From an uncultured Candidatus Saccharibacteria bacterium (GTDB taxonomy: Bacteria > Patescibacteriota > Minisyncoccia > Phycocordibacterales > CAYSCM01): a DNA stretch of 64,000 bases. The translations under genes and the position numbers were made by a program. The notes under the pieces are model-generated. The model saw only the letters and a list, made by a program, of their open reading frames with translations. It had not been told where the DNA came from and did not search any database. The stretch lies in NCBI GenBank assembly GCA_964429815.1, contig CAYSCM010000001.1, positions 192,001 through 256,000 on the forward strand, read 5' to 3'. Shown piece after piece: positions 2,019-35,363 of the stretch; position 1 is the stretch's first letter; every line of letters starts with the position of its first letter.

Positions 2019-3851
2019 CTATTTATTCGCCTCGGCCTCGAGCTCCTGGCGGGCCTTTTTAATAGCGAGAATTTGGCTCGGATCGGAGGTGATGATTTGA
2101 TCTTCGGTATAAGAGGCGATGATTTTGATGGCGACGTGTTTGAGGCCGGCAAAGAATATCCCCTCTCCCACGTCCGATTCCAGGAGCAGGTACTTTTCCT
2201 CGTCGGTGAGGTTAAACGTTTTCTGCACGTTGTCGATGGAGGTTGGCGATTGCTTCAGCAGCAGCTGAATGGAGGAGTTGGTTATCATAGGGAGCCCGTA
2301 GGGAGAGTTCAAGAAATCAGAAACGTCTTGCGTGATGGTGGCAAGACCCAGGAAGTATTTGCGCCCGCGTTTGGCGACCGAAAAGAGGAAACTCGCCGTA
2401 TCCTCGCTCTGCATCATCCAGTGCGCTTCATCGACGATAAAGAGGCGTTTCTTGAGCTCCTTGCGCACTGCGGTCCAGATGAAGTGCGTGACGATGTACA
2501 TGGCGACGGGCTTGAGCTCATCCTCCATGTCGCGCACGGAGAATACGACAAAATTTTTGTTGATATCGACATTGGTCGGGCGATTGATGAAACCTGCCCA
2601 CGTACCCTTGGTGTACTTGGAGAGGCGCTGCACGAGCGACTCGGAGCCTTCCATTCCGGCGAGCACGAGCTCGAAGTCGGAGAGGAGCGGCGGCTCGATG
2701 CTGGTGAAGTCGCTCTCCCCCGTTATGTCCTTGAGCGCATAGGTTTCCGTGATAGCCCGGTCGATGATGGAGTCTTCCTCCGGCGTTAGGCCGCCGAGCA
2801 TGATGCGGAACAGGCCCACGAGATTCACGATGTTGCTTCGAAGCACGTCGCCGGGAGCTTCGTCTTCCCGCGGGGTCGGCAGGTCGAAGGGGTTGATGTG
2901 GTGCTCGGAGGTGAGGGATATGTTGAAGTAGCGCCCACCGACGGCGTCCGCCATGTACTCGTACTCACGCTCAGGGTCGATGACAATGACCTCGGTGCCG
3001 AACATAAGGGAGCGCAAAATTTCGAGCTTTACCGCGTAGGATTTGCCGGCGCCGGATTTTGCGAACGTCACCGAGTTGTAGTTTTCGAGGCTAAAGCGAT
3101 CAAAGAGGATGAGGGAGCTGTTGTGGCGGTTGATGCCGTAGAGAATTCCCTTGTCGGAAGTGAGATCGAAGGAGACAAAGGGAAAGAGCGAGGAGAGCGG
3201 CGAGGAGTTGAGCTTCGTGTGCACGGAGAGCTCATCGGAGGCTATGGGAAGTACGGAGCGGAACCCCTGCTCCTGCTGAAAGAGCGCGGGCTTCACGTAG
3301 ATGAGGCGGCTCTCGAGCATGGTCTTTATCTCGCTCTCCACCTTGTCGAGCTCTTCCTGCGAGTTGCCATAGATAGAAATGTAAAGCCCGACATCGAAGA
3401 GTTTCTCTTGCGCCTGCTGGAGCTGGTCGCGGAGCGATTCAAGGTCACGATAGGCGGTGTCGAGCATTGGATCGCGCACGAGCCCGCGCTCCTCTCGGGT
3501 CGTGATCTGACTTTGCACCTCCGCGACCTTTTTTTGGAATTTCCGAAGCACTGTAGCGGTGTCCGCCGGATGCACGAATATGGATACGTCGAAGACCCGA
3601 TCGAGATTTATGATGGGAGCAAACCAGGAATCCGCGAGGTAGCGTGGGTAGGAAATAACAAATAGCGTGCGCACCAGCTTGTCGCCGAGATTCATCTCCC
3701 GCGGGGTGATCTTGAGCGCTGAAGGGGCGATGATGTCGTGGAACTCAAGCGCTCCCGCTTCATAGATTTCCTGCGGCAAAATGGGAGTGACCGGGACTTC
3801 CCTCCTCTTTTTCCCGCCCAAGCCTCCTGTGAGAAAATCAAGTAGAGCCAT
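2019..3851 (-). CDS. VirB4/TrbE/CagE-family type IV secretion ATPase
   Basis: 610 aa. Walker A FAKSGAGKSYAVK and Walker B FIVDEAHWMM. Length and domain order are typical of Gram-positive-type VirB4 (PrgJ/TcpF-like). Confidence 0.8.
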   Translation of the reverse strand: MALLDFLTGGLGGKKRREVPVTPILPQEIYEAGALEFHDIIAPSALKITPREMNLGDKLVRTLFVISYPRYLADSWFAPIINLDRVFDVSIFVHPADTATVLRKFQKKVAEVQSQITTREERGLVRDPMLDTAYRDLESLRDQLQQAQEKLFDVGLYISIYGNSQEELDKVESEIKTMLESRLIYVKPALFQQEQGFRSVLPIASDELSVHTKLNSSPLSSLFPFVSFDLTSDKGILYGINRHNSSLILFDRFSLENYNSVTFAKSGAGKSYAVKLEILRSLMFGTEVIVIDPEREYEYMADAVGGRYFNISLTSEHHINPFDLPTPREDEAPGDVLRSNIVNLVGLFRIMLGGLTPEEDSIIDRAITETYALKDITGESDFTSIEPPLLSDFELVLAGMEGSESLVQRLSKYTKGTWAGFINRPTNVDINKNFVVFSVRDMEDELKPVAMYIVTHFIWTAVRKELKKRLFIVDEAHWMMQSEDTASFLFSVAKRGRKYFLGLATITQDVSDFLNSPYGLPMITNSSIQLLLKQSPTSIDNVQKTFNLTDEEKYLLLESDVGEGIFFAGLKHVAIKIIASYTEDQIITSDPSQILAIKKARQELEAEANK

Positions 3852-3853
3852 AG

Positions 3854-4489
3854 CTATAGGTTCGCTGCGATCGGCTTTTCGAGCTCACCGGGGTTGAAGA
3901 GTTTGTAGTAAAGCTCGATGGCTTCCTCGGTGCCTAAGGTCGCGACCCTAACTCCGGTGCGCACGAGCCCTTGCTCGACGACCGCGACGCGTTGCTCAAG
4001 TTGGGTGCGGCTCTCTTCGAACGTCGCGGCGGCCTCCTCCTTCGTTTTTTTGCCGAAGCTCGGGAGCGTTGGGAGCCCGCTTTTTCCCACGGAGAGCACC
4101 GCCGGCGAGTACGGCACAACGATAAAGAAATTTTTCGTCATAATGTTGGCCTGCTCGACGAAGCTTTTTATGAAATCAATGTACTCGCGTGTCTGGATTT
4201 TCATAAGCTCGGTGGTCTGCTCTTTGTACTTTCCCTCAAGGAGCGCCACGTAGGGGCGGATATCGAGCTGGCGTGATTCGATGAATATCTGGATGGAAAA
4301 GTCGAGCGAGTTGAGGAAGTTTTGGAACTGCGCGAGGATGGCGGTCTGTTCGTCGGCGGATTTAAGCGCAAAATTGAGCGAGGAGGCGATGAGAATGGAG
4401 CGCAACCCTCCGTCCTTGAGGACCACGATGCCATCACGCACCTCCTTGATGGGCACGAACTCCTGGCTTGCTTTTCCGGCGACGGCCAT
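3854..4489 (-). CDS. hypothetical cytoplasmic protein between the PrgI-like and VirB4-like genes
   Basis: 211-aa ORF with no TM segment. Tightly packed in the operon (3-nt gap to virB4-like). Confidence 0.45.
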   Translation of the reverse strand: MAVAGKASQEFVPIKEVRDGIVVLKDGGLRSILIASSLNFALKSADEQTAILAQFQNFLNSLDFSIQIFIESRQLDIRPYVALLEGKYKEQTTELMKIQTREYIDFIKSFVEQANIMTKNFFIVVPYSPAVLSVGKSGLPTLPSFGKKTKEEAAATFEESRTQLEQRVAVVEQGLVRTGVRVATLGTEEAIELYYKLFNPGELEKPIAANL

Positions 4490-4495
4490 GGTGAT

Positions 4496-4939
4496 TTAGC
4501 GATAGGCGCCCGTTTTCTCCTTTATATCGAGGCTCCAGGCGAGATCCTTAAGTTTGCTCTCCGAGAGCTTAGGCACGACGATAGTCGCCTCCAGTTTCGT
4601 CTCCGGAGTGGCTTTTGCGGCGGCTTTGGGAACAACCTTTTTCCAGAGGTAGAGCCGGCCGCGCATCATGTAGTAGAAGGCCGCCTCGAGAGTCTCGATG
4701 AACGGACGATTATTTATCTTATAGAACGCAAGTGCAGCGGAAAGCGCGGCGACCGGAATACCAAGGAGTATCACGAGAAAAAGTGGCAGAAAAACGTAGA
4801 GAATGGCGATCACTCCTCCACCGCCGGCGAGGTAGACAAACTGGCGGAACGTGAGGGGCCCCACTATCTTGTCTTCCACCTCAATGAACTGCGGCACCTG
4901 GAACTGCATAGAAGTAGTATACCCCGCGCAAAGCCGCAT
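4496..4939 (-). CDS. PrgI-family (VirB3-like) small membrane protein; true start may be the internal MQFQVPQF
   Basis: 147-aa ORF. Motif VPQFIEVEDKIVGPLTFRQFVYL is followed by two TM helices. Sits immediately upstream of the VirB4-like gene, as in Gram-positive conjugation-type loci. Confidence 0.55.
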   Translation of the reverse strand: MRLCAGYTTSMQFQVPQFIEVEDKIVGPLTFRQFVYLAGGGGVIAILYVFLPLFLVILLGIPVAALSAALAFYKINNRPFIETLEAAFYYMMRGRLYLWKKVVPKAAAKATPETKLEATIVVPKLSESKLKDLAWSLDIKEKTGAYR

Positions 4940-4984
4940 CGCGGCTTTGCGCTGTAGATTCGGCGCGTACTACTATGAGTGCAT

Positions 4985-5273
4985 GAAATTCTATACGCCA
5001 AACTATGGAAACGCTTCACACGACGCCCGTCCGCAGTTTGAAATGCGCGGCAACGCCATCTACATCACCGCGCACCACCCCGGCTTTACCCCCAAAGGGG
5101 CGGTGCTCCCCTGGTATGAAAATAGGGGCGGGAAAGTCTATGCGACCGAGCATCACCCCGAGGGCAAATCACTCCATCCGGTCTATGAAATCCGGGGCGA
5201 TAGGGTGCACACTACGGTCGAACATTCTCAGCACGACCCACTACGCCACAGCTTTGAACTCCGCCTGCATTAA
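4985..5273 (+). CDS. possible small repeat protein (three degenerate ~22-aa repeats YExRG..(I/V)Y.T.HHP)
   Basis: Opposite-strand ORF in the 340-bp gap between operon genes. The protein repeats are FEMRGNAIYITAHHP, YENRGGKVYATEHHP and YEIRGDRVHTTVEHS. They arise from ~66-69-bp degenerate DNA tandem repeats that preserve the reading frame. No clear RBS. Confidence 0.25.
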
Positions 5274-5281
5274 AGCGAGTT

Positions 5282-5680
5282 CTATTTTTTTCGATATACA
5301 AATACTGACTTTATGCCGATGATGATCAGACTGATCAAGAAGAAAAGTATCGAGAGGAAGAACGAAATCCGCCCCTTGTCATTCGGAAACATCCAGTCAG
5401 TGCTGGTATTTGGCGCGATAAGTATCAACGCCACGGAGATTGCAAGAAACCACTGGGCAAAGCGGATCCACATTCGGAAAATTTCATCTCGGAGTTTATA
5501 GGTGACTAAACTCAAGATGAACAAAATTGGAAAAAACCTAAGTAAATCAATCAACCACAAAGTCTGATCTCTACAGAAAAAAAATTTATCTTGACATCCA
5601 TTACGAAGCACGAGGCTGAGAAGGATAAGAAACATTCCCGCGCCTATTCCGGAAAAAATTAAAAGAGTTTTTTTGGTCAT
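5282..5680 (-). CDS. hypothetical small membrane protein (about 4 TM)
   Basis: 132-aa hydrophobic ORF. Its stop abuts the next operon gene. Confidence 0.4.
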   Translation of the reverse strand: MTKKTLLIFSGIGAGMFLILLSLVLRNGCQDKFFFCRDQTLWLIDLLRFFPILFILSLVTYKLRDEIFRMWIRFAQWFLAISVALILIAPNTSTDWMFPNDKGRISFFLSILFFLISLIIIGIKSVFVYRKK

Positions 5681-5682
5681 AA

Positions 5683-8679
5683 CTATCTCAATCCTACCGT
5701 CACCGAATAGGTCTTTCCATCATCTAGCTGTGCAGACACTTTATACCAGTACCCAGGAGTAACCCCCTTCGTGTTCCAGTTGTAAATATATTGCCCTGGT
5801 GCCGAGTCCCAACGAAACTCACCTCCAGAGGTGCTGGGGTCGGAATATGTTGACTCATCGATGGCGGCAGTTAAAGTCGAGCCTTTAATCGGGGTAAGCC
5901 AAACTGGATTTTTACCTGCTTGTGCTAGCATTCCATTCACTTTCTTAAGTTGGAATTTTACCGGTACGGTACTTCCTCCTTTAAAAACGCTTAGAGACTG
6001 AGTGGGATTAATCGACGGGTCGTTTATTGGCTGGAGAAAACCGCTCCACCGATAGGTGATAGTCAGTGTGCCGACAATAAAAGAGGTGAATTGGTAGGTG
6101 CTCGAAGTTAAGGTGCCTATGGTGCAAATAATTGGATAAATTCCAATACCAGTTGTTGCTGTTGCCGTGGTTGAACATTGTGGAACCCCGGCAATGTCGT
6201 TGTGTGCCGCATCATCGCCATTTACAAATCCGCTGAAACTTACCGTAAAGGAAGGAATAGGAGAACCGAGCACGATGGTTTTATTATCCACGGTGACCGT
6301 AAGGGGATTGAAAACTACTAGTCCGTCCAACTTCGGAGTGAGAGAATAAACTGTAGTTCCGTCTCCGTTTACATCGAGTGAGAGAGGACTCGCGCCAGCG
6401 ATCGTCCCGTCAGAGAAATTCATAGTCGCGATGGTAGTTGTTGCCGAAGGAATGTCTGCGAACGTTGTTGTTGCAAGAATAGAATTCCCTTCAACCTCTT
6501 CTATTTTGAGAGTAAATCCTCCAGCCGATTCTCCTTCCAACCGCAGAGTCGGGAGGTCTTCTGCAGGGACACTCACGTATTTAATGTCACCAAACTCAGT
6601 GTACGTTGCTCCTGGGATGGTATTTTCAAGAATCCTTGTACTCGTTGCTAGTTTCAGGTGGTTCCCATTTTTATCATTGATCTCAATGGAAAGTGGTGAG
6701 TGCAGGAAGTATCTTAGACGCTTTTGAATTAAATGAGAGGGAACTTCTTTGGAGATGTATTGCGGTAGCTGTGCTGCGCTATTTATAATGATACCGTCAA
6801 TCAAATCGTTGAGTTGCCCAACTTCAAGGATGTCTGCGTGGTCTCTGCCCAAAGGAATAGTGAGTCGGTTGTCCTTATTGAACTGGTTCAAATCAACCCA
6901 ATATCTGCTCACGTTAGGCGAGCTCGTACTCATCGTGAGCGCACTTGGAGTGACTACAGTTCCGTCCCCATCGACAACGATGCCAAGGTCTTCGTCGAGA
7001 CATGGGTTGTACCTGAGACAATGGTAAAAGCCACCATTTCGATAAGAAATATTACCCACTGTTTCGTTGCCCCACCCCGCAATTTGATACAACTGAATTC
7101 CCGACGGTGGAACCCACGTATCGAGATGGCTATGCAGGACGTCAGCATCATTCAAGAGCAATGCATTACCGACGAGAGGATAGGTCACATTGGAAAATGA
7201 AGGCCCAGTTCGCCCCTCGATCCCCGAGACAAATGAAGCGAGCTCATTGAAAGTATTTATATTCGAGCCATAGGCGTCAGTAAATATTTTTGTCGTGCTG
7301 CCGCTCCGAAATGATATGGGTGGAGTAATCACATCACTCCCAGGCCCGTCAAAGTACGCTCGGGACGGGAGGAGGTTGTACACCATTGGAGAATTTTGTG
7401 CGAATGCGCGCGCCGTCGCCTCGCTTAGAACGAACCCCAAGGCATGTGATTGATTGGTTCCATCCAGGAGAGCCCCTACGGCGATAGGGGTCCCCGTTTG
7501 AGGAACGGCGACAAAAATAATCTTGTCGATAAGGGAGCTAGCTTCCGGACCGAGTATTTCCATCAATCTTTTGGCCAAAAGGCCCCCGTTGGAATGGGCG
7601 ATGATAGTGACTTTTCCGGTATTCGAGGTTCCGGCCAAGCGTCGAAGTTCCTGGAGTATGTACGGGGTCGTAGTGGAGCGGAGGTTTCCCGAATAGTAGA
7701 TATGATCGCCGACCTGATGCCCATACTTTAGAATATCATCGAGCGACAATCGCCAGTCATAAGCAGCCGGCAGCCAATCCTTGATCGTGCCGGCGGTTTT
7801 GAGTTGATCCATTTCACCGATAAAACTTTTGTAAATATTCGCTCCGGTCGGCAATTCGTCGATAACGTCGCCGATTTTTGTATATATATCGCCACGCACG
7901 CTTGAACCATCCGGATTCATGAAAAGATCCCGCGCATCGGCATTGCTGAAGGGCTCCCACAGTCTATCTTCCCCTCCGCCGTCGGCCGGGCGATATAAGC
8001 GACTTGCCTCTATGCCAGGCAAAAAGAGCACGTTTGAGTTGCTTTGCGTATTGATATTACTCGTTCCGAGTTCGTCATACATCAGAAGATCGCCCAGGTC
8101 TGGGCGTGCACCGAATTCTGCCGACAAAGCGACGGTGTCGATGAAATCTCCCGCCGCATGAGCCACGGCGCCTACCCACGAGCAGTGTCCAACATCAACA
8201 TCATCTTGCTGAAAACATGTTTCCTTGGCACCTACATGATCTCGCCATGCAAAAAGATATTGATGCCACTGTCCATCGAGAGGAGTAAATCTATTTCTGA
8301 ATTCACAATTGGTTGAAGCCGAAACATTCGGCGCACCGGTACAAAGTAAAACGATGCTGCCGTACCCAAATTGAGCCCATCCGCTCTGGGCTTTTGCGTA
8401 GAATGTGATGTTTCCTTCGGTTAACGGAGTCCCTGTTTTGTAAATTCTAGGAATTTGGAAAAGCACGGTACTTTGAAGACATTGACCGGAGATACACCCG
8501 CTGCTCACTTGGGTAAACGGGCCTACACTTCCACCGTACACGTTCCAGCCAAAGTATCCGAAGGGTAAATCGAAGGAGTCGGAGACGGGAGCGGCCGCAA
8601 ACGCGTGACTGCCGGAGAGAAGAAGAAAAAATAGTCCGAAAACGAAAACGAAGAGTCGCCAGTAGCGGACTTTTTTCAT
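5683..8679 (-). CDS. large secreted protein with LCAT/PDAT-like alpha/beta-hydrolase (phospholipase A/acyltransferase) domain and C-terminal beta-rich (Ig-like) region
   Basis: 998 aa. Signal peptide MKKVRYWRLFVFVFGLFFLLLSGSHAFAAAP. Motif LPAAYDWRLSLDD matches the AAPYDWRL signature of lecithin:cholesterol acyltransferase-family enzymes. GXSXG-type nucleophile elbow IIAHSNGGLL lies about 55 aa downstream of that motif. The C-terminal 350 aa is Thr/Ser/Gly/Val-rich. Confidence 0.65.
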   Translation of the reverse strand: MKKVRYWRLFVFVFGLFFLLLSGSHAFAAAPVSDSFDLPFGYFGWNVYGGSVGPFTQVSSGCISGQCLQSTVLFQIPRIYKTGTPLTEGNITFYAKAQSGWAQFGYGSIVLLCTGAPNVSASTNCEFRNRFTPLDGQWHQYLFAWRDHVGAKETCFQQDDVDVGHCSWVGAVAHAAGDFIDTVALSAEFGARPDLGDLLMYDELGTSNINTQSNSNVLFLPGIEASRLYRPADGGGEDRLWEPFSNADARDLFMNPDGSSVRGDIYTKIGDVIDELPTGANIYKSFIGEMDQLKTAGTIKDWLPAAYDWRLSLDDILKYGHQVGDHIYYSGNLRSTTTPYILQELRRLAGTSNTGKVTIIAHSNGGLLAKRLMEILGPEASSLIDKIIFVAVPQTGTPIAVGALLDGTNQSHALGFVLSEATARAFAQNSPMVYNLLPSRAYFDGPGSDVITPPISFRSGSTTKIFTDAYGSNINTFNELASFVSGIEGRTGPSFSNVTYPLVGNALLLNDADVLHSHLDTWVPPSGIQLYQIAGWGNETVGNISYRNGGFYHCLRYNPCLDEDLGIVVDGDGTVVTPSALTMSTSSPNVSRYWVDLNQFNKDNRLTIPLGRDHADILEVGQLNDLIDGIIINSAAQLPQYISKEVPSHLIQKRLRYFLHSPLSIEINDKNGNHLKLATSTRILENTIPGATYTEFGDIKYVSVPAEDLPTLRLEGESAGGFTLKIEEVEGNSILATTTFADIPSATTTIATMNFSDGTIAGASPLSLDVNGDGTTVYSLTPKLDGLVVFNPLTVTVDNKTIVLGSPIPSFTVSFSGFVNGDDAAHNDIAGVPQCSTTATATTGIGIYPIICTIGTLTSSTYQFTSFIVGTLTITYRWSGFLQPINDPSINPTQSLSVFKGGSTVPVKFQLKKVNGMLAQAGKNPVWLTPIKGSTLTAAIDESTYSDPSTSGGEFRWDSAPGQYIYNWNTKGVTPGYWYKVSAQLDDGKTYSVTVGLR

Positions 8680-8709: not shown

Positions 8710-8773
8710 TCAATGCATACCGTGGCGTGCATTGAATACTCAAATTATAAGCTATAGCTTATAATTTGAGTAT
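8710..8773. promoter_or_regulatory. two adjacent palindromes in the promoter region of the LCAT-like gene: 8710..8735 (8-bp arms TCAATGCA/TGCATTGA, 10-nt spacer) and a 38-bp perfect AT-rich palindrome 8736..8773
   Basis: ATACTCAAATTATAAGCTATAGCTTATAATTTGAGTAT checked base by base as a perfect inverted repeat. It is AT-rich in a GC-rich background. It lies 57 bp upstream of the 5683..8679 start. Confidence 0.5.
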
Positions 8774-9737: not shown

Positions 9738-12182
9738 TTATGGAATCCTACCGAGAGTGTGGAAGAGACGTCCCCCTTGGCTATTTCCAAAGTTTGCTAG
9801 CGCAAGTATGGCAGGATCGGTCGCACCCGCGTTTCGGCGATTAATTACTTCTTGCATAATGGCATTACCAGCACCCACATCAGCGCCTGCTTTCATCATT
9901 TCTCGAAGCGCTTCTTGTTTTAGGTGAGGAACAAGCTCGGGAAGGAGGGTGGCTCTCGTACTTGAATCGTCATAGAGACCCAGCGCCATTTTGGCCATTG
10001 CCTTGGGATCAACCCGCAACTTCTTAATATCCGTACCAAAGGTTCCAATCGCTCCATGGCCCAGAGACTCTTTAAGGAAATCCCCTCGCTGTTTACCAAG
10101 TGCCGCTTTAATACTGGCGGCGATCTTGTCGCTTTTCATAACCTCGTCGTATTTATCCTGGGACAGTGTCCTCGCCAAGGTGTCGATTTGTCCAGCGAGG
10201 GCCTTTTCAGTAATTATGAGCTCGAGCTCTTTATTGTTTACCTTGTCGAATTTCTTTATTAACTCCTCGTCTTCCGCTGAAAGATGGCCAGGAATTGCGG
10301 CCGCTGCCGCACGTGCAGCATTTTCCAGAAGTTCTTTGTGACGAGCGGTGGTTACTTTATCGCGCATTTCGTCGGTGTACTTATCATTTTTCACATCAGA
10401 TATGGATAGATACTGTGAAGAGGTAAGATTCTTCGCTACCCAGTCTTTTGTCAAAGTCTTCACCCCCAAAGAGGCCAGCTGCGTATCACTCATCGCACCA
10501 AGAGCTCGAAGACCTTTTGCTTCAGCTTCTTGTTTTTGTGCGTCTGTGTATTTTGTTGGATTCTCACTGATCTCAATCGCGCGCTCAATGTCGTCGCGGA
10601 AGTCTGCCTCCCTGCGTACCGCAGCACGCCCGAGCTTTTCCTTCTTAACCTCTTCCTTGATCGCGACTCCTGATTTAGTCGTTCCAAACTTAGCACCTGC
10701 AATTAGGCCGGTGGTGTACTTGCGGGCAAGGGAACCCAACTGGGTCCCACCAATAAGGCGTGACTGAGCGAGCCTTTGATCAAGGTTCGCAATGGGCCTG
10801 CCAATTGCATTGCGGGCCAGGAAGCCACCGCCGTATTTGCCGATAGATTTTACAGTAAAGTTGATTGCATTCAGGCCTTCATTGCCAATTTTTTTTGCAA
10901 CCGATAGGGTTAGAAGTGATAATCCAATAACAACTGCAAAGTTTATTAGCAATTGGATTGATCCGGGGGCAGTAGCCGCCGAGCTTCCGTCCGCTAGGTC
11001 CGCAAACGTTCCATTACCAATAGCGGTTTGAAATGCTGGATTTTTCATTACACCCAACACGAACCACAATAATCCAAAGTAGGCCGGTAGCATTATCGCA
11101 TTTGACCAAAGCGCCCCCCACCACTGGTTCCATAGTCCACCGAAGAAGGGTAAAAAACGAGCAAGCACAGCTAACGGAGAGGTGACCATTAGCACAAGGA
11201 ATACAATAATTCGCCCAATTATATGTAAAGCAGCGATGAGGAATGAATAGGCAAGGATTATAAAGAGAATGCAGCCAAGCATACTCAAAAGAAAACTATT
11301 GCCATTACTGAGCAGGGCGGCCGCCCTACTGCCGGTGAAGTTTTTCAAATCATATAAAGACCCCATCCGTAAAACTTGCATAAACTGTCCCGATAGCCCG
11401 ACATCCGAGTTTAGAAATTGATCAGTCTGCCCCTTCGCAAGTAACTGAGTGTAGAACTGTGTTGAAATATAATTACTTGCATCGATTACGACCCTTGTTA
11501 GAGCGAAGCTAAAATTTATCAGTAACGCCGCTATTACCACGTTCGCCAAAAGTTTTTTTGCCCCGTATTGTTGTACCCGCAATATGGTGGAAATGCCGAT
11601 AATCAAAAGGCTGAAAATAAGAACAATATTCGCCACATCACGAATGGTCATCCAAAATCCGTCGAGAGTACCGAAGGTCTTTATTGTTGTTCCAAAGTCA
11701 AGAACACCCCACACCACCACCTTGTTCAAGAAGAACCCGGCAACTCCCAGAATCCAAGCAAACAAGGTTAGGAATGCGTACCCAATACATCCGATGGAAA
11801 TATCAGGAATAAAGCCGACGTACGGGTCACAGTTGGGTGGCTTACTTCGTATATCGTCACCCTTTTTCTTTGAGGCATCGGCTGCTTGTGTATCGGTACT
11901 TTCCCTTACGTCTGCATCACTCACAGCGTCACCCTTTACGGTAATTAAGGAACCATCGGCCGCACGATAAAAATACGGATCAGTTATGTTTTTCCCTGGG
12001 CCAAGCAATGTATAGGTCTTTCCATTCCAAGTGCAAGCTGGGGGGTAGTTGTTTGCGCCAGTGGCTGTGCAAAGAGGGTCCGCGGCGAGAGCAACTTCTG
12101 TATGTAGTGAAAAGCCATACCCAACCACAAAAGACTTTAAGATGAAAATTGTGAGTAGTAATGTTGAAACAGCTTTTCTCAT
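9738..12182 (-). CDS. VirB6/TrbL-like polytopic membrane protein with signal peptide, extracellular N-domain, about 8 TM helices and 380-aa hydrophilic C-terminal tail
   Basis: 814 aa. Topology (signal peptide, about 8 TM helices, long charged Lys/Glu-rich tail) resembles conjugation-channel VirB6/TrbL proteins. Assignment is by architecture and context, not by a signature motif. Confidence 0.45.
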   Translation of the reverse strand: MRKAVSTLLLTIFILKSFVVGYGFSLHTEVALAADPLCTATGANNYPPACTWNGKTYTLLGPGKNITDPYFYRAADGSLITVKGDAVSDADVRESTDTQAADASKKKGDDIRSKPPNCDPYVGFIPDISIGCIGYAFLTLFAWILGVAGFFLNKVVVWGVLDFGTTIKTFGTLDGFWMTIRDVANIVLIFSLLIIGISTILRVQQYGAKKLLANVVIAALLINFSFALTRVVIDASNYISTQFYTQLLAKGQTDQFLNSDVGLSGQFMQVLRMGSLYDLKNFTGSRAAALLSNGNSFLLSMLGCILFIILAYSFLIAALHIIGRIIVFLVLMVTSPLAVLARFLPFFGGLWNQWWGALWSNAIMLPAYFGLLWFVLGVMKNPAFQTAIGNGTFADLADGSSAATAPGSIQLLINFAVVIGLSLLTLSVAKKIGNEGLNAINFTVKSIGKYGGGFLARNAIGRPIANLDQRLAQSRLIGGTQLGSLARKYTTGLIAGAKFGTTKSGVAIKEEVKKEKLGRAAVRREADFRDDIERAIEISENPTKYTDAQKQEAEAKGLRALGAMSDTQLASLGVKTLTKDWVAKNLTSSQYLSISDVKNDKYTDEMRDKVTTARHKELLENAARAAAAAIPGHLSAEDEELIKKFDKVNNKELELIITEKALAGQIDTLARTLSQDKYDEVMKSDKIAASIKAALGKQRGDFLKESLGHGAIGTFGTDIKKLRVDPKAMAKMALGLYDDSSTRATLLPELVPHLKQEALREMMKAGADVGAGNAIMQEVINRRNAGATDPAILALANFGNSQGGRLFHTLGRIP

Positions 12183-13840
12183 ATCGTTTGTTGTTGCGGG
12201 AAGGCGTAGCAGGCATCGAGCCTCTGCAAGGCGTCCTGAATGAGCGGATTTATTTCGGCGAGCATGTCGGACTGCTCTTGCTGCGCTGTTGCGATATCGG
12301 CATCGGAGGGGAGCGCGCCGGAGGATGTGAGTGCAGTGAACTGGGCCGAAGCGGCATCGAGCTCGTCGGGAGAAGTTGCATTCTGTATCTGGGATTCAAG
12401 TTGATACGCCTGGTTGATAGCACCCTGTGTTTTGGCGATTTGAGCCGAGAGAGCCACCTTCTTGGTCGTGACGAGGCTCGCCTGCGTCGTCGAGGCGGCG
12501 AGAATGCTTCGCTGCGCCGTCGCTAGGTCGGTGGAGCTGAGGGAAGAGCTGGCAATTTTGTTCCGGTAACAGTCAATGAGGCTCCCGAAATCGCTGTCGG
12601 CGATGAGCACTTGGTTTAGCGTCGCCTGCTTGACGCTTATGTACTGCTGGGCTTTAGCGATCGAGACATCGACGAGCGAGAGACCCGCACTTTGACGCCC
12701 CGAAATTTCTGCTGATTGCGCGTTGGCGACGTAGACGTCAAGTGCGGTACCGCCGCCAAACTGGCCGTTTTGCGTCGAGAGACCCTTGACGCCGCCGAGC
12801 GCGAGAAGGCCTTGCTTGATGAGCTGTCCGACGAGCGCGGAGATGATGGAGTTTATGTCATTGGCGAGCTCGAGCTGGTCTATATCGGTGCCTAGGACTT
12901 TTGAGAGCTGATCTTGTATCGCCGCTCCCGGGGTGACGATGGTGCAATTTGCTTTCGGGTCCGTTTTATAAGGATCTTGTCCAGGATAGTAGGTCGTGAA
13001 GGTGCCGCCGGTGCCGCTTGTTCCGTCGCTGTAGGTGGTTATAGGTGATTGGCTGCTGCACTGTTTGAACGAGAAGAAGCCGCGGCCGAACTCAAGAAGC
13101 TTCGTGTTGGTGTACTGCGCGCTCGCGATACGCACGGAGAGCTCGCTCTGTGCCATGAGGTAGGAGCCATAGGGATTGTTTTGCGGATTGGTTGTCATCG
13201 CAAACCACGCGGGCCAACCGCCGGCAGCAAAATTCGTGAACGCACTGTTGACGTTTCCGACGACGCTTGAGAGTGTGCAGCGCGCTTTGTTTTGGTACGG
13301 TTGGAAATTAAGCGCGAGCGCGACGCGCACCTGGAGCTGAAAGGGGGAACACAGGAATGAGAGTTCGGAGCCGTAAATAAATTCTCCTATCACCTGGTCG
13401 GCGACGTTGGTGAGGAATCCTTGAAGGTCGGTGACGAAGGCGGGATTCCCCTGAAAGCCGTTGTTTATCCAATTGACGATGCTTCTGGTGAGCTGCGCAA
13501 GGAGCGTCTTGGCGATGAGGATGATGATGGGCTTAATAACACAGTCATGAATGGTCGCGCTTTCGGTCGCGCCCTGGATGCCACCGCTCGCGATATGGAG
13601 ATACTTGTCTACGGCTGGGACATCAGCAGCTTGAAGTCCTATAGAACTGACCCCCGTTGCCTTGCCCTGAATAAGGGAGCTTAGGCAGAAAGCCGTATCG
13701 GGGCCGGCGGGAGTCTGAGCACTCGCCCTCTGGGGGAAGAAAGAAATAGCGGCAGCCCATGGCGCCAGAAGCACGACGAGGAGGAGCCCGGCGATTTGCC
13801 TTTGCATTGAGCCACGGATTGTAGAAATAAGCCCCCTCAT
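12179..13840 (-). CDS. hypothetical secreted protein (553 aa, signal peptide) of T4SS-like operon
   Basis: Signal peptide IAGLLLVVLLAPWAAAISFFPQRASAQ. Gln/Ala/Ser-rich C-terminal half. Start overlaps the stop of the upstream gene by 4 nt. Confidence 0.45.
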   Translation of the reverse strand: MRGLISTIRGSMQRQIAGLLLVVLLAPWAAAISFFPQRASAQTPAGPDTAFCLSSLIQGKATGVSSIGLQAADVPAVDKYLHIASGGIQGATESATIHDCVIKPIIILIAKTLLAQLTRSIVNWINNGFQGNPAFVTDLQGFLTNVADQVIGEFIYGSELSFLCSPFQLQVRVALALNFQPYQNKARCTLSSVVGNVNSAFTNFAAGGWPAWFAMTTNPQNNPYGSYLMAQSELSVRIASAQYTNTKLLEFGRGFFSFKQCSSQSPITTYSDGTSGTGGTFTTYYPGQDPYKTDPKANCTIVTPGAAIQDQLSKVLGTDIDQLELANDINSIISALVGQLIKQGLLALGGVKGLSTQNGQFGGGTALDVYVANAQSAEISGRQSAGLSLVDVSIAKAQQYISVKQATLNQVLIADSDFGSLIDCYRNKIASSSLSSTDLATAQRSILAASTTQASLVTTKKVALSAQIAKTQGAINQAYQLESQIQNATSPDELDAASAQFTALTSSGALPSDADIATAQQEQSDMLAEINPLIQDALQRLDACYAFPQQQTI

Positions 13841-18443: not shown

Positions 18444-21134
18444 TTATTTCAAATAGGGCAGTCGCGAAGCGATGATGTCGAGTCGAGAAATCTGTTCAGG
18501 GGAGAGATGTTGCGCCTGGGAAAGAAATTTCCCAAATAGCGAAGGGTCTTTCAAAATCCCGGCATAGTTTATGGTGCCGCCGATATTGGCACCTTGGTTG
18601 ATGCCCTTCAAAACTTCCTCTGGCTTCAATCCCCACCTTGCGAGCTGTTCGAAGTTGCCGCTATCGAGAGCTCCTTTCACCGTCTTGCTTAGACCGTCCG
18701 CGATGTACATACGCTGGCCGGGAGAGAGGTCGAGACTATCGAGATCGGGATGCCCATGCATCGTTTTTGCGAGCGTACTCCAAAGACTGTCTCCTCGCTC
18801 GATGGTAACTCCTCCATAGATCGGATTTTCTGGAGCCGCAGGAACCTCGCCAGGGTGGGCCGGTACGCTGGGCGCTTCTGGGTGGTACGGTGGCGTTGGG
18901 GGTGATGTATCTGGATTGGCTAATGAGGATTGATCGAGCTGATGCTGCGCTTCGTTGAAACCTTCGGGAGCCGATGGGGAACCTGGTGCGATCGAACCAA
19001 CTCCTAGATCGGTCAGTGCCGCCATCGCGCCGGCTCCCCCTGCAGTGGAAACGGCACGAATTATTTTTTCATTTCGCTCGACACGTGCGGTTCTTCTTTC
19101 TATTTCCTTAAGGAGATAGTCCTTCTCGGCGATCGGAGCGCCCTGGAGAGCGAACTTAAGCTTGGCGATTTCCTGTTTTTCCTTTTCGGCACGATTTTGC
19201 CAGGCGCTATAGGAGTGCGCGGCGAATTCTCCCAAAAATCTACCACCAGCAGCTCCGAGAAGAGCACGCCCGACCAATATCGCGCCTCCAGTTAGTGATG
19301 CTCCGCCGCCAGCCGCAAGTATCGTCGCACCCGCAGCAGCCTTTGCGTAGCGATTTTGCCTCCCATACCAACTCGCCATCTTTCTAAACGCACCTGCACG
19401 TCGCGAAGGTAGAGCGGCAGCGCGTTCCTCGGCAAGTTTACGTGACTCTAGAAGTACAAGTTGTTGCACGAGGCGGCCCTCGTAGCGGCGTTTAAATATT
19501 TCCTCTGCTTCGGCCGCAGTTCTCCTTCCCGGGCCCCGATTTTTCTCAATTTTTTTCCAAAATTGCCACCAGCTTTTGTTTTCCTCCTGTCCTTGTTCGA
19601 AGGCCGCCTGGTTTGCGACAGCAGCTTTACGCAGCTTGCTCTTACGAAAATGTTCGTCAGCTTCCGCTCGGAGCCGCATAAGCATTTCTTGTCGCACGGC
19701 TTCGTGTTGATGGCGCGCCGCCGCTAACGTTTCGGGCTCCCCTCGGCTTCGCAAACCCACAAATTCAAGGGTTTTGCTAAGTCTCCCACGAGAGTTATAC
19801 CGCACCTCTTCCTGGGCAAGTTTTTTGCGTGCCTGTACGAGATGCGCCGCTCTCTCCTGGCCAAGGTATCTCTCAAGCAAATCCTCTTCCTTCACGGGGG
19901 CTCTTTCTCGAAGTTTTGCACGGGGTTCATCAGGGAGACGATCGGTAAGTTCCAAAACGTCTTCCTGTTCGCGTCGCGCCTTCTCCTCCTTTTCAAAATC
20001 AGGACGAAATTGTTCTGCGAGAACGAGCGCCTCAGCTTTCGTTGCTCGAGTATCAGCGTCTTGTGCGCGAAGTTTCTCTCGGGCCGCCTCCGCCGCAGCT
20101 CCTGCCTCGGAACTTAGCGGCGAGACTTTTTCAGCTTTGAGTTTTCGCAGATAGCGCTGGGGCACGGGTACTTCATGCGGAGGTTTTTGCTCCGTGGCGG
20201 CGTTAATCCGTACCGTACGGTAAAAATCACTTCGGTTTTGAAAACGCTGCAGTTCATTTGTGTAAGCCGCGGATGGCGCTACGAATTTGTTTTCAGGGCG
20301 CAGCTCTTTTGTGGTTGAGGTCCTTGCCGTGTCTTTCTTCATAGGTACGGTATCTTCACCTCTCCACTCACCACCAACGTTTACTCGCCGGACCATCTTC
20401 GCCCCTCCATCACGTTGACGCCGGTATTCCTGACCTTCCGGCTCTTTCGCTACCATAGGCGCGTCAATCTGCGCCTCCTCGTGCGTGGTAATGGTTTCAG
20501 TACTTTCGGTTGAGACATGGCCGGGTTGGGAATCATCCACCTCTACAGCGGGAATTTCGATTTGCGGTTCCTCGTACGTGGTGATGGTGTTGCCACGCCC
20601 TATCGTTTCATTTGCTCGGACACGATCCCCAGGAGCAACCACGGTAGAGACCTTGGACGGTTTCTTCCCATCGCGTGAGCCGCGTCCGTATCTTTTTTCG
20701 AGAACTTCCTTTTGACGACGCACACTTGTTACCCATTGGTCATGGCCAATGGACTTTTGGATGTCTTTAACCTCGTCCATGTGTCGTCGGTACTTGGTGG
20801 CCACTCCTCGCGCGACTCTCCCGAGCTTCCCAAAGCGATCCCTCCCTTGAGCGGGCTTCTCTTTGGAAGTCGCTCCAACTTCAAGGTGCTCGGTTTTATC
20901 TGACCGTTTCATTTCAACAGTCGGACGAAACCGCAGTGGCGAGCGCCTAACCGTAGTTCCCTGTTCACTTTTGGGACGCCGGATACCAACGGGGATGGGA
21001 GCACCTTTTTGGTTAACCTGGGCCTCTCGATCACCCAGGGCGTTTTTGGATGGAGAGCTGGTTAGTTTGCGGGCGTTGTTGAGGGGTGACTGACCTTTTT
21101 TCCTTGAAGAAGGAAGGTTCTCAATCCTTTTCAT
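18444..21134 (-). CDS. large hypothetical protein: basic low-complexity N-terminus, long charged coiled-coil region, Gly/Ala-rich hydrophobic segment, C-terminal globular domain
   Basis: 896-aa uninterrupted ORF. EEKARREQE-type coiled-coil composition. One central hydrophobic stretch GATILAAGGGASLTGGAILVGRALLGAAGG. Confidence 0.5.
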   Translation of the reverse strand: MKRIENLPSSRKKGQSPLNNARKLTSSPSKNALGDREAQVNQKGAPIPVGIRRPKSEQGTTVRRSPLRFRPTVEMKRSDKTEHLEVGATSKEKPAQGRDRFGKLGRVARGVATKYRRHMDEVKDIQKSIGHDQWVTSVRRQKEVLEKRYGRGSRDGKKPSKVSTVVAPGDRVRANETIGRGNTITTYEEPQIEIPAVEVDDSQPGHVSTESTETITTHEEAQIDAPMVAKEPEGQEYRRQRDGGAKMVRRVNVGGEWRGEDTVPMKKDTARTSTTKELRPENKFVAPSAAYTNELQRFQNRSDFYRTVRINAATEQKPPHEVPVPQRYLRKLKAEKVSPLSSEAGAAAEAAREKLRAQDADTRATKAEALVLAEQFRPDFEKEEKARREQEDVLELTDRLPDEPRAKLRERAPVKEEDLLERYLGQERAAHLVQARKKLAQEEVRYNSRGRLSKTLEFVGLRSRGEPETLAAARHQHEAVRQEMLMRLRAEADEHFRKSKLRKAAVANQAAFEQGQEENKSWWQFWKKIEKNRGPGRRTAAEAEEIFKRRYEGRLVQQLVLLESRKLAEERAAALPSRRAGAFRKMASWYGRQNRYAKAAAGATILAAGGGASLTGGAILVGRALLGAAGGRFLGEFAAHSYSAWQNRAEKEKQEIAKLKFALQGAPIAEKDYLLKEIERRTARVERNEKIIRAVSTAGGAGAMAALTDLGVGSIAPGSPSAPEGFNEAQHQLDQSSLANPDTSPPTPPYHPEAPSVPAHPGEVPAAPENPIYGGVTIERGDSLWSTLAKTMHGHPDLDSLDLSPGQRMYIADGLSKTVKGALDSGNFEQLARWGLKPEEVLKGINQGANIGGTINYAGILKDPSLFGKFLSQAQHLSPEQISRLDIIASRLPYLK

Positions 21135-21507: not shown

Positions 21508-22425
21508 ATGTTGGGCACATCCGTATCTGCTGCCTCGGCCACCGCACCGAAGACTTTCTGGAATCTCCAAACCATGCCGCTTCTCCAGGCGGCTCACAAT
21601 CAGGATCTGACGCTTGCGCGCGGCGGCGGGGACATCACCATCGTCGATAATACCTCGCTTCTCCCTGAATCAGGCCCCTCGGGAACACTTGCCGACATAG
21701 AGGATGCACAATCGACCGTGATCAGCGTCTACGTCGTACGACCAGGCGACACGCTCTCCTCGATAGCCAAACTCTTTGGCGTGACCGCCAACACCATCTT
21801 CTGGGCCAACGATCTCAAGAGCATCCGCGACATCCATCCTGGGGACACCCTCGTCATTCTCCCCATTTCGGGCGTTCGCTACACGGTGAAGAAAGGTGAT
21901 ACGGTCGCCTCCGTCGCTAAAAAATTCAAAGCCGACGCCGCCGACATTATTTCCTACAACAATCTCGGCGACGGCGGGCTCACGGTGGGTGCGGACATCA
22001 TCATCCCCGACGGCGAGCTCGCAACTCCGCCAACGCCGGTAAAAGGGAATCCTTACCGTGGTGGCAGTGGCCCTCTCTACGCGGGTTACTATATTGCACC
22101 ACTTGCGCACTACATAAAGACGCAGGGCCTCCATGGCTACAACGGCGTCGACCTGGCTGCGCCCTACGGCTCCCCTGTTCTTGCCGCAGCGGGTGGCACT
22201 GTAATCATCGTCAAAGACTTTGGCTGGAACGGCGGCTACGGCAACTACATCGTCATAAGCCATCCAAACGGCACCCAGACGCTCTACGCTCATACGTCCA
22301 AAAATATCGTTTCTGTGGGCGAGAGCGTCGTTCAGGGCCAAGTAATCGGCTACGAGGGAGCGACCGGCAAGGCGACCGGGCCTCATGTCCACTTCGAGAT
22401 ACGCGGTGCGAAAAATCCGTTCTAA
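21508..22425 (+). CDS. LysM-domain M23-family metallopeptidase (cell-wall hydrolase); ORF is open upstream to about 21382 with a signal-peptide-like stretch, so the start may be non-ATG
   Basis: Two LysM repeats (YVVRPGDTLSSIAKLFGV and YTVKKGDTVASVAKKF). M23 motifs HGYNGVDLAAPYGSPV and GPHVHFE. In-frame upstream VLRALFLSGVVASLSFTPIIASA looks like a signal peptide. Confidence 0.8.
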   Translation: MLGTSVSAASATAPKTFWNLQTMPLLQAAHNQDLTLARGGGDITIVDNTSLLPESGPSGTLADIEDAQSTVISVYVVRPGDTLSSIAKLFGVTANTIFWANDLKSIRDIHPGDTLVILPISGVRYTVKKGDTVASVAKKFKADAADIISYNNLGDGGLTVGADIIIPDGELATPPTPVKGNPYRGGSGPLYAGYYIAPLAHYIKTQGLHGYNGVDLAAPYGSPVLAAAGGTVIIVKDFGWNGGYGNYIVISHPNGTQTLYAHTSKNIVSVGESVVQGQVIGYEGATGKATGPHVHFEIRGAKNPF

Positions 22426-30220: not shown

Positions 30221-31132
30221 ATGGCCGACCTTGAGACGCTCAAACGCCAGTTCCTCGAACACCTTGAGATAGAAAAGGGCCGCTCGCTCAAGACGATCGA
30301 AAATTACGATCGCTACCTCTCGCGCTTCCTCGATTTCACCAAAACGAAATCCCCCAAAAGCATCTCGGACGATTCGGTGCGAGAATTCCGGCTTTGGCTC
30401 AACCGCCAGCCAGGCGGCGGCAACGAGACGCTCAAGCGCAAGACGCAAAACTACTACCTCATCGCGCTTCGCGCGTTCCTCAAGTACTTGCGCAAGCGCG
30501 GCATTGAGTCCATCTCCCCGGAGCGCATCGAGCTTGCCAAAGTATCGCAGCGGGAACTCGATCTCATTTCAGGAAGCGAACTCGAGCGTTTGATGAAAGC
30601 ACCGGAAGAGAACACTCTCTCTTCCCTTCGCGATCGCGCCATCCTTGAGCTTCTTTTTTCGACCGGATTGCGGGTGTCAGAGCTCACCTCGCTCAATGCC
30701 GACATCGACTTGGGGAGCGACGAGCTTTCCGTGCGCGGCAAGGGCGAAAAAATACGCGTGGTGTTTCTCTCCCCCTCAGCCAAAGATGCCCTGAAAAAGT
30801 ACCTCGCGAAACGAAAGGACATGGACGAAGCGCTCTTCGTGCAGATGGGAAAAAACGCTAAAGGAGTGAGTGAACTTCGCCTCACCCCGCGCTCCGTCGA
30901 GCGGCTCGTGAAACGCTACGCGATAAAGGCCGGCATCACGCGCAAGGTGACCCCGCATGTCATCCGTCACTCCTTCGCCACCGACCTTCTTCATAATGGC
31001 GCGGACCTTCGAAGTGTGCAGGCGATGCTCGGGCACGCCAACATCGCGACGACGCAGGTCTACACACATGTTACCGACAAGCACCTACGAGACATTCACA
31101 AACATTTTCACGGGCGTAAGCGTCGCTCCTAA
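30221..31132 (+). CDS. xerD: tyrosine site-specific recombinase XerC/XerD family
   Basis: 303 aa. Catalytic region HVIRHSFATDLLHNGADLRSVQAMLGHANIATTQVYTHV with the R..H..R..Y signature and an N-terminal SAM-like domain. Confidence 0.85.
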   Translation: MADLETLKRQFLEHLEIEKGRSLKTIENYDRYLSRFLDFTKTKSPKSISDDSVREFRLWLNRQPGGGNETLKRKTQNYYLIALRAFLKYLRKRGIESISPERIELAKVSQRELDLISGSELERLMKAPEENTLSSLRDRAILELLFSTGLRVSELTSLNADIDLGSDELSVRGKGEKIRVVFLSPSAKDALKKYLAKRKDMDEALFVQMGKNAKGVSELRLTPRSVERLVKRYAIKAGITRKVTPHVIRHSFATDLLHNGADLRSVQAMLGHANIATTQVYTHVTDKHLRDIHKHFHGRKRRS

Positions 31133-34978: not shown

Positions 34979-35050
34979 GCCCCCGTGGTGAAATGGATAT
35001 CACAACTGGCTTCGGACCAGTTATTGTGGGTTCGAGTCCTGCCGGGGGCG
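34979..35050 (+). tRNA. tRNA-Arg (anticodon UCG)
   Basis: Manual cloverleaf. Acceptor GCCCCCG/CGGGGGC, D-stem GUGA/UCAC, anticodon stem ACUGG/CCAGU with loop CUUCGGA, T-arm GUGGG-UUCGAGU-CCUGC, discriminator G, no encoded CCA. Confidence 0.85.
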
Positions 35051-35253
35051 CAAACGGCACAAAACGCGGTGCATTTTGCGCGTTTGCGCCAGGCGGAGCG
35101 ATGTTTTGCGAGTACACAAAACCGTGAGCCGAGGCCGCGAAAATTCTGAGCGACGACGAAAAACTATTTTTGTGACCGCCTCGGCGTCGGGTGACAGATT
35201 CTAGATTGAGAAAGCACTGACGCGTGCTATAGTTTCCCCGAAGTATAAAGCAG

Positions 35254-35324
35254 GCGGCCATAGTTTAGTGGTAGGACGGATCCTTGCCAAGGATCAGGTG
35301 GGAGTTCGATTCTCCCTGGCCGCA
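35254..35324 (+). tRNA. tRNA-Gly (anticodon GCC)
   Basis: Manual cloverleaf. Acceptor GCGGCCA/UGGCCGC, anticodon stem GGAUC/GAUCC with loop UUGCCAA, T-arm GGGAG-UUCGAUU-CUCCC, discriminator A. Confidence 0.85.
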
Positions 35325-35348
35325 CAAAAGGACACTTCCCTACGGGGT

Positions 35349-35363
35349 CAGGGAGAATCGAAC
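35349..35363. repeat. inverted copy (CAGGGAGAATCGAAC) of the tRNA-Gly T-arm/3' segment GTTCGATTCTCCCTG (35304..35318)
   Basis: 15-nt perfect reverse complement 30 nt downstream of the tRNA. Confidence 0.6.

Follow-up and report, generated by a model that had tools for sequence, protein, structure and literature searches.

The window analyzed here is a 64,000-nucleotide stretch of an uncultured Candidatus Saccharibacteria bacterium (contig CAYSCM010000001.1, positions 192,001 to 256,000), and the subject of this analysis is a gene on its reverse strand (5683-8679, (-); ATG start, TAG stop) that encodes an exported hydrolase of 998 amino acids resembling lecithin:cholesterol acyltransferase (LCAT) and the phospholipase LPLA2. 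Directly downstream on the same strand lies a conserved gene for a protein of 132 amino acids with four transmembrane helices (5282-5680, (-)), and the two genes together (5282-8679, (-)) are a self-contained cassette that has no relation to the adjacent genes of a type IV secretion system (T4SS). We consider it moderately probable, judging from sequence comparisons and models, that the hydrolase acts outside the cytoplasm as a coenzyme A (CoA)-independent phospholipase A or transacylase on foreign membranes, in the service of lipid salvage, membrane attack or both, and that the four-helix membrane protein is its partner. What the analysis shows is the gene itself, its export signals, its fold, the invariance of the putative catalytic triad, the size of the family, the pairing of the two genes and their independence from the T4SS.

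Fold, predicted active site and export of the hydrolase

A first-pass annotation of this DNA, made from the letters alone and naming no strand, had described the product of the gene as a secreted alpha/beta hydrolase of the LCAT family with an AAYDWRL motif, an AHSNGG nucleophile elbow about 55 residues downstream and a long Thr/Ser-rich beta region. Searches with profile hidden Markov models (HMMs) agreed on the family, since the Pfam LCAT model (PF02450) matched residues 285-617 with 47.2 bits against a gathering cut-off of 21 (E = 2.5e-12; model positions 68-388 of 392). Both motifs were indeed present, LPAAYDWRL at residues 303-311 and AHSNGG at residues 361-366, and the spacing from Tyr307 to Ser363 was 56 residues. 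The YDWR motif (Y307, D308, W309 and R310; 7750-7761; all parts of the hydrolase gene are given on the (-) strand), which we take to be diagnostic of the LCAT family, lies upstream of the putative nucleophile as part of AAYDWRL (residues 305-311). In an alignment of 85 sequences sharing 39-53% identity with the query, Y307, D308, R310, H362-S363, G365-G366, D572 and H614 were invariant, and W309 was conserved in at least 90% of the sequences.

An AlphaFold2 model of the hydrolase was built on 85 homologues and had a predicted local distance difference test score (pLDDT) mostly above 90 for residues 211-998, but a poor one for residues 23-210. The catalytic alpha/beta-hydrolase domain with its cap comprises residues 211-640 (6760-8049). 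In the model, the predicted nucleophile Ser363 (codon 7591-7593) sits in a strand-Ser-helix elbow between strand 357-362 and helix 365-383, the predicted catalytic acid Asp572 of the DGDGTV motif (6964-6966) ends strand 561-572, and the predicted base His614 (6838-6840) lies in a loop close to residue 617, where the Pfam LCAT match stops. The order xHSxG ... GDGTV ... H that is typical of the LCAT family is present in the sequence, while the geometry of the three residues is predicted. When the model was compared with the Protein Data Bank (PDB) using Foldseek, ranks 1-9 were occupied by LPLA2 and LCAT (E = 2e-12), with TM-scores on the target of 0.70-0.72 for LPLA2 and 0.61-0.69 for LCAT, and Tle4, a type VI secretion system (T6SS) phospholipase, ranked after them. 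The closest solved fold therefore appears to be that of LPLA2/LCAT, including both the alpha/beta-hydrolase core and the LCAT-type inserted sub-domains. The structural expectation raised by the first-pass annotation, a Ser-Asp-His triad with a lid as in LCAT and LPLA2, agrees with the fold and with the invariance of the three residues, its geometry being predicted. The hydrolase is thus, as modelled, a protein of LCAT/LPLA2 (PF02450) fold with a predicted Ser363-Asp572-His614 triad and a helical cap, and since it has both the Ser-Asp-His order and the motif set of the LCAT family, it is very probably an active enzyme.

The fold also bears on the possibility that the protein is a non-lipid esterase feeding on polymers, such as a polyester or polyhydroxybutyrate depolymerase, a cutinase-like enzyme, a feruloyl esterase or a peptidoglycan O-acetyl esterase. 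The best match, LPLA2, exceeded generic hydrolases by about 9 Z-units and aligned over 330 of 376 residues, cap region included, and the matches that followed LPLA2 and LCAT were phospholipases and lipases; together with the Pfam assignment to LCAT and the conserved YDWR signature, this makes a polymer-directed esterase very improbable.

The hydrolase bears a predicted Sec signal peptide (residues 1-28, MKKVRYW...SHAFA; 8596-8679) that was recognized by reading of the sequence. The N terminus, MKKVRYWRLFVFVFGLFFLLLSGSHAFA before and AAP after the putative cleavage point, combines a basic segment with a hydrophobic helix and a site for cleavage that is AxA-like, and the model places a helix at residues 2-21, so that the signal peptide named in the first-pass annotation was borne out. 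A hydrophobic N-terminal segment was also found in 102 of the 114 homologues starting with Met. The ten cysteines of the protein form five close pairs, as exported proteins would be expected to have; three of these pairs fall in a variable N-terminal domain (residues 29-210; 8050-8595) that has no Pfam match and a pLDDT below 50. In the 150-nucleotide gap upstream of the gene there is a 17-bp perfect palindrome (8736-8773; ATACTCAAATTATAAGC TATA GCTTATAATTTGAGTAT) that contains TATAAT and could be a promoter or operator of the hydrolase's own, or else the terminator of the upstream gene.

Architecture and distribution of the family

The conserved core of the family comprises 580 residues (211-790), i.e., the hydrolase and a beta domain of about 150 residues, and in an exhaustive HMMER scan covering 1.84 billion representative proteins it was always recovered as one aligned stretch. 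The beta domain, a family-specific beta-sandwich (residues 641-790; 6310-6759), is all-beta in the model with a pLDDT above 90, is not part of LCAT or LPLA2 and is without a Pfam model; its conserved residues are LHSPL (659-663), D669, G672 and D769. It is followed by an MBG_2 surface-protein domain (residues 793-873; 6061-6303; PF18676, E = 2.1e-15) and by a C-terminal PxKF 'rightmost' domain (residues 879-998; 5686-6045; NCBIfam NF038114, 97.9 bits against a cut-off of 35, E = 4.3e-28). These three domains make up the Thr/Ser-rich beta region (residues 641-998; 22% Ser plus Thr, all-beta according to the AlphaFold2 model and the sequence), and MBG_2 and PxKF correspond to the adhesin-like modules that had been suspected there.

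At 50% identity clustering, the family numbered 2,977 clusters at E<=1e-3 and 1,602 at E<=1e-30, and at least 542 loci were counted in species-representative genomes. Most of the 120 homologues listed carried a precomputed PF02450 annotation. What surrounds the core is highly variable: the N-terminal extensions reached a length of about 775 residues and were missing in fragmentary sequences, and the modules added in homologues included beta-helix/NosD, DUF5011, DNRLRE, chitobiase-C, MBG_2 and PxKF. Of the 120 best homologues, only 2 had the N-terminal domain of the query (residues 29-210), and PxKF is optional, with about half of the homologues spanning only 58% of the query. The named members belong to Kaiserbacteria, Lloydbacteria, Moranbacteria, Nomurabacteria, Kerfeldbacteria, Paceibacterota/Parcubacteria and the 'Patescibacteria group'. 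Among the named loci of the species-representative genomes, Kaiser-, Moran-, Lloyd- and Nomurabacteria/Paceibacterota predominated. Nearly all named members are thus members of Patescibacteria, or the Candidate Phyla Radiation (CPR), and mostly of Paceibacteria; the exception is one 5-kb contig labelled Bdellovibrionales, which may be a binning error. In databases, members were filed under such names as 'PxKF domain-containing', 'hypothetical' and 'pimeloyl-ACP methyl ester carboxylesterase'. A search of plasmids gave only a remote homologue on Bacillus cereus megaplasmids (NZ_AP022879.1, 53746-57213; locus L088), a 1,155-residue 'alpha/beta hydrolase' with 22% identity over 88% of the 580-residue core, downstream of which the (incomplete) gene table listed no small gene on the same strand.

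Independence of the cassette from the type IV secretion genes

The first-pass annotation had placed the hydrolase gene within a T4SS-like operon, co-transcribed with it, and had proposed that the product might be an effector of that apparatus. Genes for PrgI, TrsD and a CD1110-type VirB4 do occupy positions 2019-4939 (-), the VirB4 matching the CD1110 family with 374 bits against a cut-off of 325, and the hydrolase gene is on the same strand at a distance of 343 nucleotides plus one small gene. Moreover, a cultured patescibacterium cannot grow epibiotically without its T4SS genes, for which no substrates are known (PMC12102498). However, the small gene between the cassette and PrgI, taken from the gene calls of the source annotation and lying outside the cassette, is on the opposite strand (4983-5273, (+); 96 amino acids), and therefore the cassette is convergent with it and PrgI divergent from it. 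This 96-residue protein has no Pfam match and carries three copies of an internal repeat with the pattern [FY]ExRGxx[IV]YxTxHH(P).

Linkage was examined in 80 homologous loci with flanks of up to 10 kb from species-representative genomes, and VirB4, TrsD, PrgI and two downstream proteins of the T4SS cluster were absent from all 80 (tblastn E<1e-5; phmmer E<1e-2). A close relative (about 70-74% nucleotide identity, VirB4 in the same 90% cluster) was compared as well. Its gene order, UvrD-KsgA-TSP3-552-797-258 ... 96aa-PrgI-TrsD-VirB4-173-340-pilin-435-jag-yidC-rnpA-dnaA, retains the T4SS and keeps the 96-residue gene at the same place (locus L083, 8585-8875), whereas the LCAT-like gene is missing from the cassette site, which instead holds a gene for a 123-residue 23S_rRNA_IVP four-helix-bundle protein (L082/L083, 8180-8551, (-)) in the opposite orientation to the hydrolase gene of the window. 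Nucleotide homology with this relative is interrupted from about 5215 to about 11077 of the window. Since a 23S_rRNA_IVP gene is found at the same site, the spot between the genes is a variable insertion site, and since the relative lacks the cassette, the latter is dispensable or replaceable, at least at this locus. The G+C content at third codon positions (GC3) likewise sets the hydrolase gene (0.485) strongly apart from the adjacent T4SS genes (0.66-0.75), and the cassette (0.49) from the housekeeping genes for PNPase, UvrD and PilB (about 0.7). Finally, the hydrolase carries a Sec signal, whereas T4SS substrates are typically cytoplasmic.

Gene order thus gave neither a genomic association with virB4 nor a shared transcription unit, by which membership in the T4SS cluster would be recognized. 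Taken together, the linkage in 0 of 80 loci, the synteny of the relative, the opposite-strand gene, the Sec signal and the GC3 difference speak against the hydrolase as an operon member or effector of the T4SS, a reading to which we give next to no probability. That the hydrolase gene has the T4SS as a neighbour here is incidental, and the protein is hence not to be counted among T4SS effectors; that assignment, tempting as it was, is hereby corrected. The T4SS cluster itself is complete, its TrsD being a separate protein that resembles the N-terminal part of VirB4. The cluster adjoins jag-yidC-rnpA-dnaA, and its position near dnaA agrees with the published MPF-FATA-like T4SS of Patescibacteria (PMC12102498), to which the PrgI-TrsD-VirB4-...-pilin cluster of the window is alike; that work makes no mention of a lipase or of any LCAT-like component, and the LCAT-like cassette is no component of the system. 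The cluster also holds two unknown genes and, where it continues beyond the start of the window (L001, 8385-9326), a T4SS pilin gene.

The four-helix membrane partner

All open reading frames (ORFs) across 81 loci were clustered in a survey of neighbours, and only one conserved family emerged, namely a protein of about 135 residues encoded directly downstream of the hydrolase on the same strand, which the first-pass annotation had overlooked. It was present after 59 of the 73 hydrolase genes with at least 500 nucleotides of downstream sequence, and the gaps between the two genes were -41 to +41 nucleotides in 58 cases and +114 in one; in the window, the ATG of the partner lies 2 nucleotides past the stop codon of the hydrolase. 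The next commonest neighbour family occurred in only 12 of the 81 loci, and the clusters next in frequency to the partner (IS200-like transposase, FAD oxidase, ABC ATPase and FtsK) were each found in 12 loci or fewer; no conserved neighbour hinting at lipid metabolism was present among the ORF clusters of the 81 loci. In the reciprocal test, a PF02450 gene was found upstream on the same strand for 4 of 4 members of the partner family located on long contigs, directly adjacent in three of them (gaps of 5-13 nucleotides).

A single-sequence search with the partner returned 3 proteins, while a profile search returned 245 members, all of 127-156 residues and none with a Pfam domain or an informative name. 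The partner itself gave only sub-threshold Pfam matches, the best being to DUF202 (E = 0.016, below the cut-off), and a Foldseek comparison of its model with the PDB revealed no related solved structure (E > 7). The AlphaFold model (pLDDT 79) contains helices at residues 3-28, 36-62, 65-88 and 102-131, and because of the distribution of charges both ends of the protein are predicted to be cytoplasmic. This would place Cys29 and Cys36, which are invariant or nearly so, in the first outer loop; W71 and S117 are invariant as well.

Several loci deviated from a simple pair. Locus L054 (2321-9829) contained a tandem hydrolase-partner-hydrolase-partner array. In L002 (9341-13375) the partner gene was duplicated, and the second hydrolase copy of that assembly (L010) was without a partner; in L020 (8921-16187) an orphan partner gene lay 3 kb away, and the second hydrolase copy of that assembly (L026) was likewise without one. 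In the loci fetched, the ratio of hydrolase to partner genes in these two assemblies with two hydrolase genes was hence 2:2. These copy-number patterns suggest a cognate pairing of hydrolase and partner. The second commonest neighbour of the cassette, in 12 of the 81 loci, was an ORF of about 234 residues that looked IS200/Y1-transposase-like by eye (e.g., L072, 4765-5454), and its presence is compatible with mobility of the cassette region. In two of the four partner-side loci, a TspO/MBR gene (L084, 6942-7337; L087, 9374-9784) was located downstream of the cassette, at a distance of a few genes. TspO/MBR is a tryptophan-rich sensory protein, i.e., a membrane protein that binds lipids and tetrapyrroles.

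Such a pair of genes invites the explanation that the cassette encodes a toxin and its immunity protein, that is, an antibacterial or host-lytic phospholipase delivered by contact or diffusion, with the four-helix protein protecting the producer and with killing or permeabilization as the aim. The tight 1:1 coupling of the partner gene, the tandem arrays, the extra and orphan partner copies and the 2:2 counts would all fit such a pair, as would the highly variable N- and C-terminal modules, which recall polymorphic toxins, and the occurrence of the cassette as an indel between close relatives with an atypical GC3. The fold of the hydrolase resembles that of Tle4 too, and secreted phospholipases have been proposed as disruptors of the host envelope in CPR predators (PMC11665869, PMC8080830). 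Against this, the hydrolase has no recognized domain for toxin delivery, such as LXG, Rhs or VgrG, and leaves the cytoplasm by the ordinary Sec route. The Tli immunity proteins known so far are lipoproteins or soluble proteins of the periplasm, unlike the four-helix partner, the latter has no fold match in the PDB, and some hydrolase genes have no partner. We regard a dedicated toxin-immunity pair as the main rival, though the less likely reading; in its attack on membranes it overlaps with the phospholipase A/transacylase reading that we favour, does not exclude it and differs from it mainly in purpose.

Proposed function of the cassette

Much of bacterial diversity belongs to CPR/Patescibacteria, most of which are unable to make fatty acids or phospholipids, and the hydrolase family is widespread in such lipid-auxotrophic lineages. 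In the reaction of LCAT, LPLA2 and PDAT, the catalytic Ser is acylated by a glycerophospholipid, and water or the hydroxyl of a lipid then receives the acyl group, with no need for CoA or ATP. Acyl transfer of this kind is a chemistry that is available outside the cell, and no other acyl-transfer chemistry is known to be open to enzymes outside the cytoplasm. The window encodes no lipid-synthesis gene along its 64 kb, which hold housekeeping genes. Lipidomics of CPR-enriched fractions points to lysolipids obtained from neighbours; such fractions are rich in lysolipids, perhaps because phospholipase A acts on the lipids of other cells (PMC7242380). No mechanism of lipid uptake or breakdown has been identified so far in Patescibacteria according to a 2024 perspective (PMC11665869), and for Vampirococcus a secreted phospholipase has been proposed to have a dual role in breaching the host membrane and supplying lipids (PMC8080830). 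The suggestion of the first-pass annotation that the enzyme scavenges lipids is therefore reasonable, because the organism is of the CPR/Patescibacteria type, and it matches a question left open in the literature (PMC11665869, PMC7242380).

In the mechanism that we propose, the hydrolase would be exported by Sec to the cell surface, where its variable modules would dock it on a foreign membrane, either of the host or of a neighbour. These surface-binding modules flanking the core would be swappable; in the present protein they would be the N-terminal domain of no known family, MBG_2 and PxKF. Ser363 would attack an acyl ester of a glycerolipid to give an acyl-enzyme, and the acyl chain might then be passed to water, with release of a fatty acid and a lysolipid (phospholipase A activity), or to a lipid acceptor, in a CoA-independent transacylation as catalyzed by LCAT, LPLA2 and PDAT. 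The outcome would be lysolipids and acyl chains for a lipid-auxotrophic CPR cell and a weakened target membrane. The four-helix protein, the gene of which would be translationally coupled to that of the hydrolase, would reside in the producer's own membrane as the cognate partner, most plausibly for self-protection (immunity) or docking, or alternatively for the presentation or uptake of an acceptor or product. The substrate, the direction of acyl transfer, the target membrane and the role of the partner are what we infer in this scheme. A bolder version of it, which we find speculative and fairly unlikely, is that the cassette is a lipid-acquisition device of Paceibacteria-type CPR, in which a surface transacylase takes acyl chains or lysolipids from the host membrane and, using neither CoA nor ATP, passes them to an acceptor that the four-helix partner presents or imports, thereby building the membrane of the symbiont.

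The abundance of lysolipids could be read in another way, since CPR-enriched fractions contain unusually large amounts of them and relief of curvature stress has been proposed as their role (PMC7242380). The hydrolase might then remodel the envelope of the producer, by generating lysolipids for curvature or by de- and re-acylating its own lipids, lipoproteins or lipoglycans, with the four-helix protein as an anchor, and the existence of a dedicated membrane-protein partner in the producer would suit this task. Nevertheless, the close relative is without the cassette at this site, the copy number ranges from 0 to 2 or more, and the variable adhesin-like modules (MBG_2, beta-helix, DUF5011) suggest outward-facing, diversifying interactions, so that own-envelope remodelling appears improbable.

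The phospholipase A/transacylase reading has weaknesses of its own, and the following points weigh against it. The identity of the hydrolase to LCAT/LPLA2 is remote (about 15-17%), and among PDB sequences neither phmmer nor the family profile reached LCAT or LPLA2, finding only Tle4 (E = 0.0097) and generic lipases with marginal E-values; the assignment rests on the Pfam HMM and the fold. The triad geometry and the lid are predicted from conservation and secondary structure, and the substrate could be another ester. No homology, whether to Pfam families or to PDB folds, backs a role for the partner, and 10 of the 14 hydrolase ORF calls without a downstream partner were full-length genes, therefore about one hydrolase gene in seven has no adjacent partner. 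Last, the absence of the LCAT-like gene from the syntenic relative is easier to reconcile with a factor that is accessory or competitive than with an essential step of salvage.

Comparison with known systems

LPLA2 and LCAT are secreted, disulfide-containing proteins that act at the surface of membranes or lipid particles without CoA. The CPR hydrolase is like LPLA2 (PLA2G15) and LCAT (PF02450; PDB 4X90 and 4XWG) in having YDWR, the xHSxG elbow, GDGTV and the C-terminal His in the same order, but it differs in being bacterial and about 1,000 residues long at the remote identity given above, and in adding the 150-residue beta domain, variable adhesin-like modules and a dedicated gene for a four-helix membrane partner. 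As the CPR setting is without sterol- or ceramide-bearing lipoproteins, the acceptor, if there is any, must differ from those of LCAT and LPLA2. The Tle4 (PA1510/TplE)-Tli4 pair of Pseudomonas aeruginosa (4R1D) offers a bacterial lipase that is encoded beside its cognate immunity protein and aimed at the membranes of other cells. Tle4, however, lacks a Sec signal and depends on the T6SS for delivery, in contrast to the CPR hydrolase, Tli4 is soluble and periplasmic, in contrast to the four-helix partner, and the match of the Tle4 fold to the CPR hydrolase is clearly weaker than that of LPLA2. The linkage to T6SS or VgrG genes that marks Tle-Tli pairs was not seen, as no T6SS-relevant families were present among the neighbour clusters inspected in the 81 loci. 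No T6SS is known from Patescibacteria.

Closest in concept is Vamp_34_196 of Vampirococcus lugosii, for which, in the available text of PMC8080830, the idea of an exported phospholipase in a lipid-auxotrophic CPR bacterium, combining breach and supply, was put forward. The likeness is one of description, since that text presents a single gene of Absconditabacteria, describes no partner and does not state that the protein is of an LCAT-like family. The literature searched in full text held no published link between LCAT/lecithin-type enzymes, PF02450 or PxKF and CPR/Patescibacteria, in line with the remark of the first-pass annotation that a fusion of LCAT-like and adhesin-like parts was not recognized as described; we found no published description of the family. 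The sequences themselves are public and carry automatic LCAT or PxKF labels, and what is new in comparison with LCAT and LPLA2 are the conserved extra beta domain, the swappable surface modules and the four-helix partner. The family amounts to a large clade of exported enzymes nearly confined to Patescibacteria that, as modelled, share the fold of animal extracellular enzymes of CoA-independent acyl transfer, and the two-gene cassette is a concrete, clonable candidate for lipid salvage and attack on host membranes.

Other features of the window

The remaining gene content of the window is typical of CPR, with a monoderm-type T4SS near dnaA, a type IV pilus cluster and housekeeping genes. Judged by this content and by the named homologues, the lineage is probably Paceibacteria and resembles Kaiserbacteria, at 54% GC. 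The large ORFs at 9738-12182, 12179-13840 and 18444-21134 (all (-)) encode proteins of 814, 553 and 896 residues without significant Pfam or NCBIfam matches. The first two are syntenic with genes for proteins of 797 and 552 residues in the close relative. The 814- and 896-residue ORFs have a low GC3 (0.46 and 0.50), like the cassette, and the value for the 553-residue ORF is 0.67. The pilus cluster (52881-58600, (+)) encodes a PilB-like ATPase (T2SSE), PilC (T2SSF), several small ORFs and a 458-residue ORF; the small ORFs and the 458-residue ORF had no Pfam matches and are possibly pilins. A LysM-LysM-M23 peptidase, of a type that has been suggested to stand in for VirB1 in Patescibacteria, is encoded at 21508-22425 (+), and a tyrosine recombinase of the XerC/D type at 30221-31132 (+). 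Four tRNA genes (Arg-TCG, Gly-GCC, Pro-TGG and Gly-TCC) are located at 34979-37564 (+).

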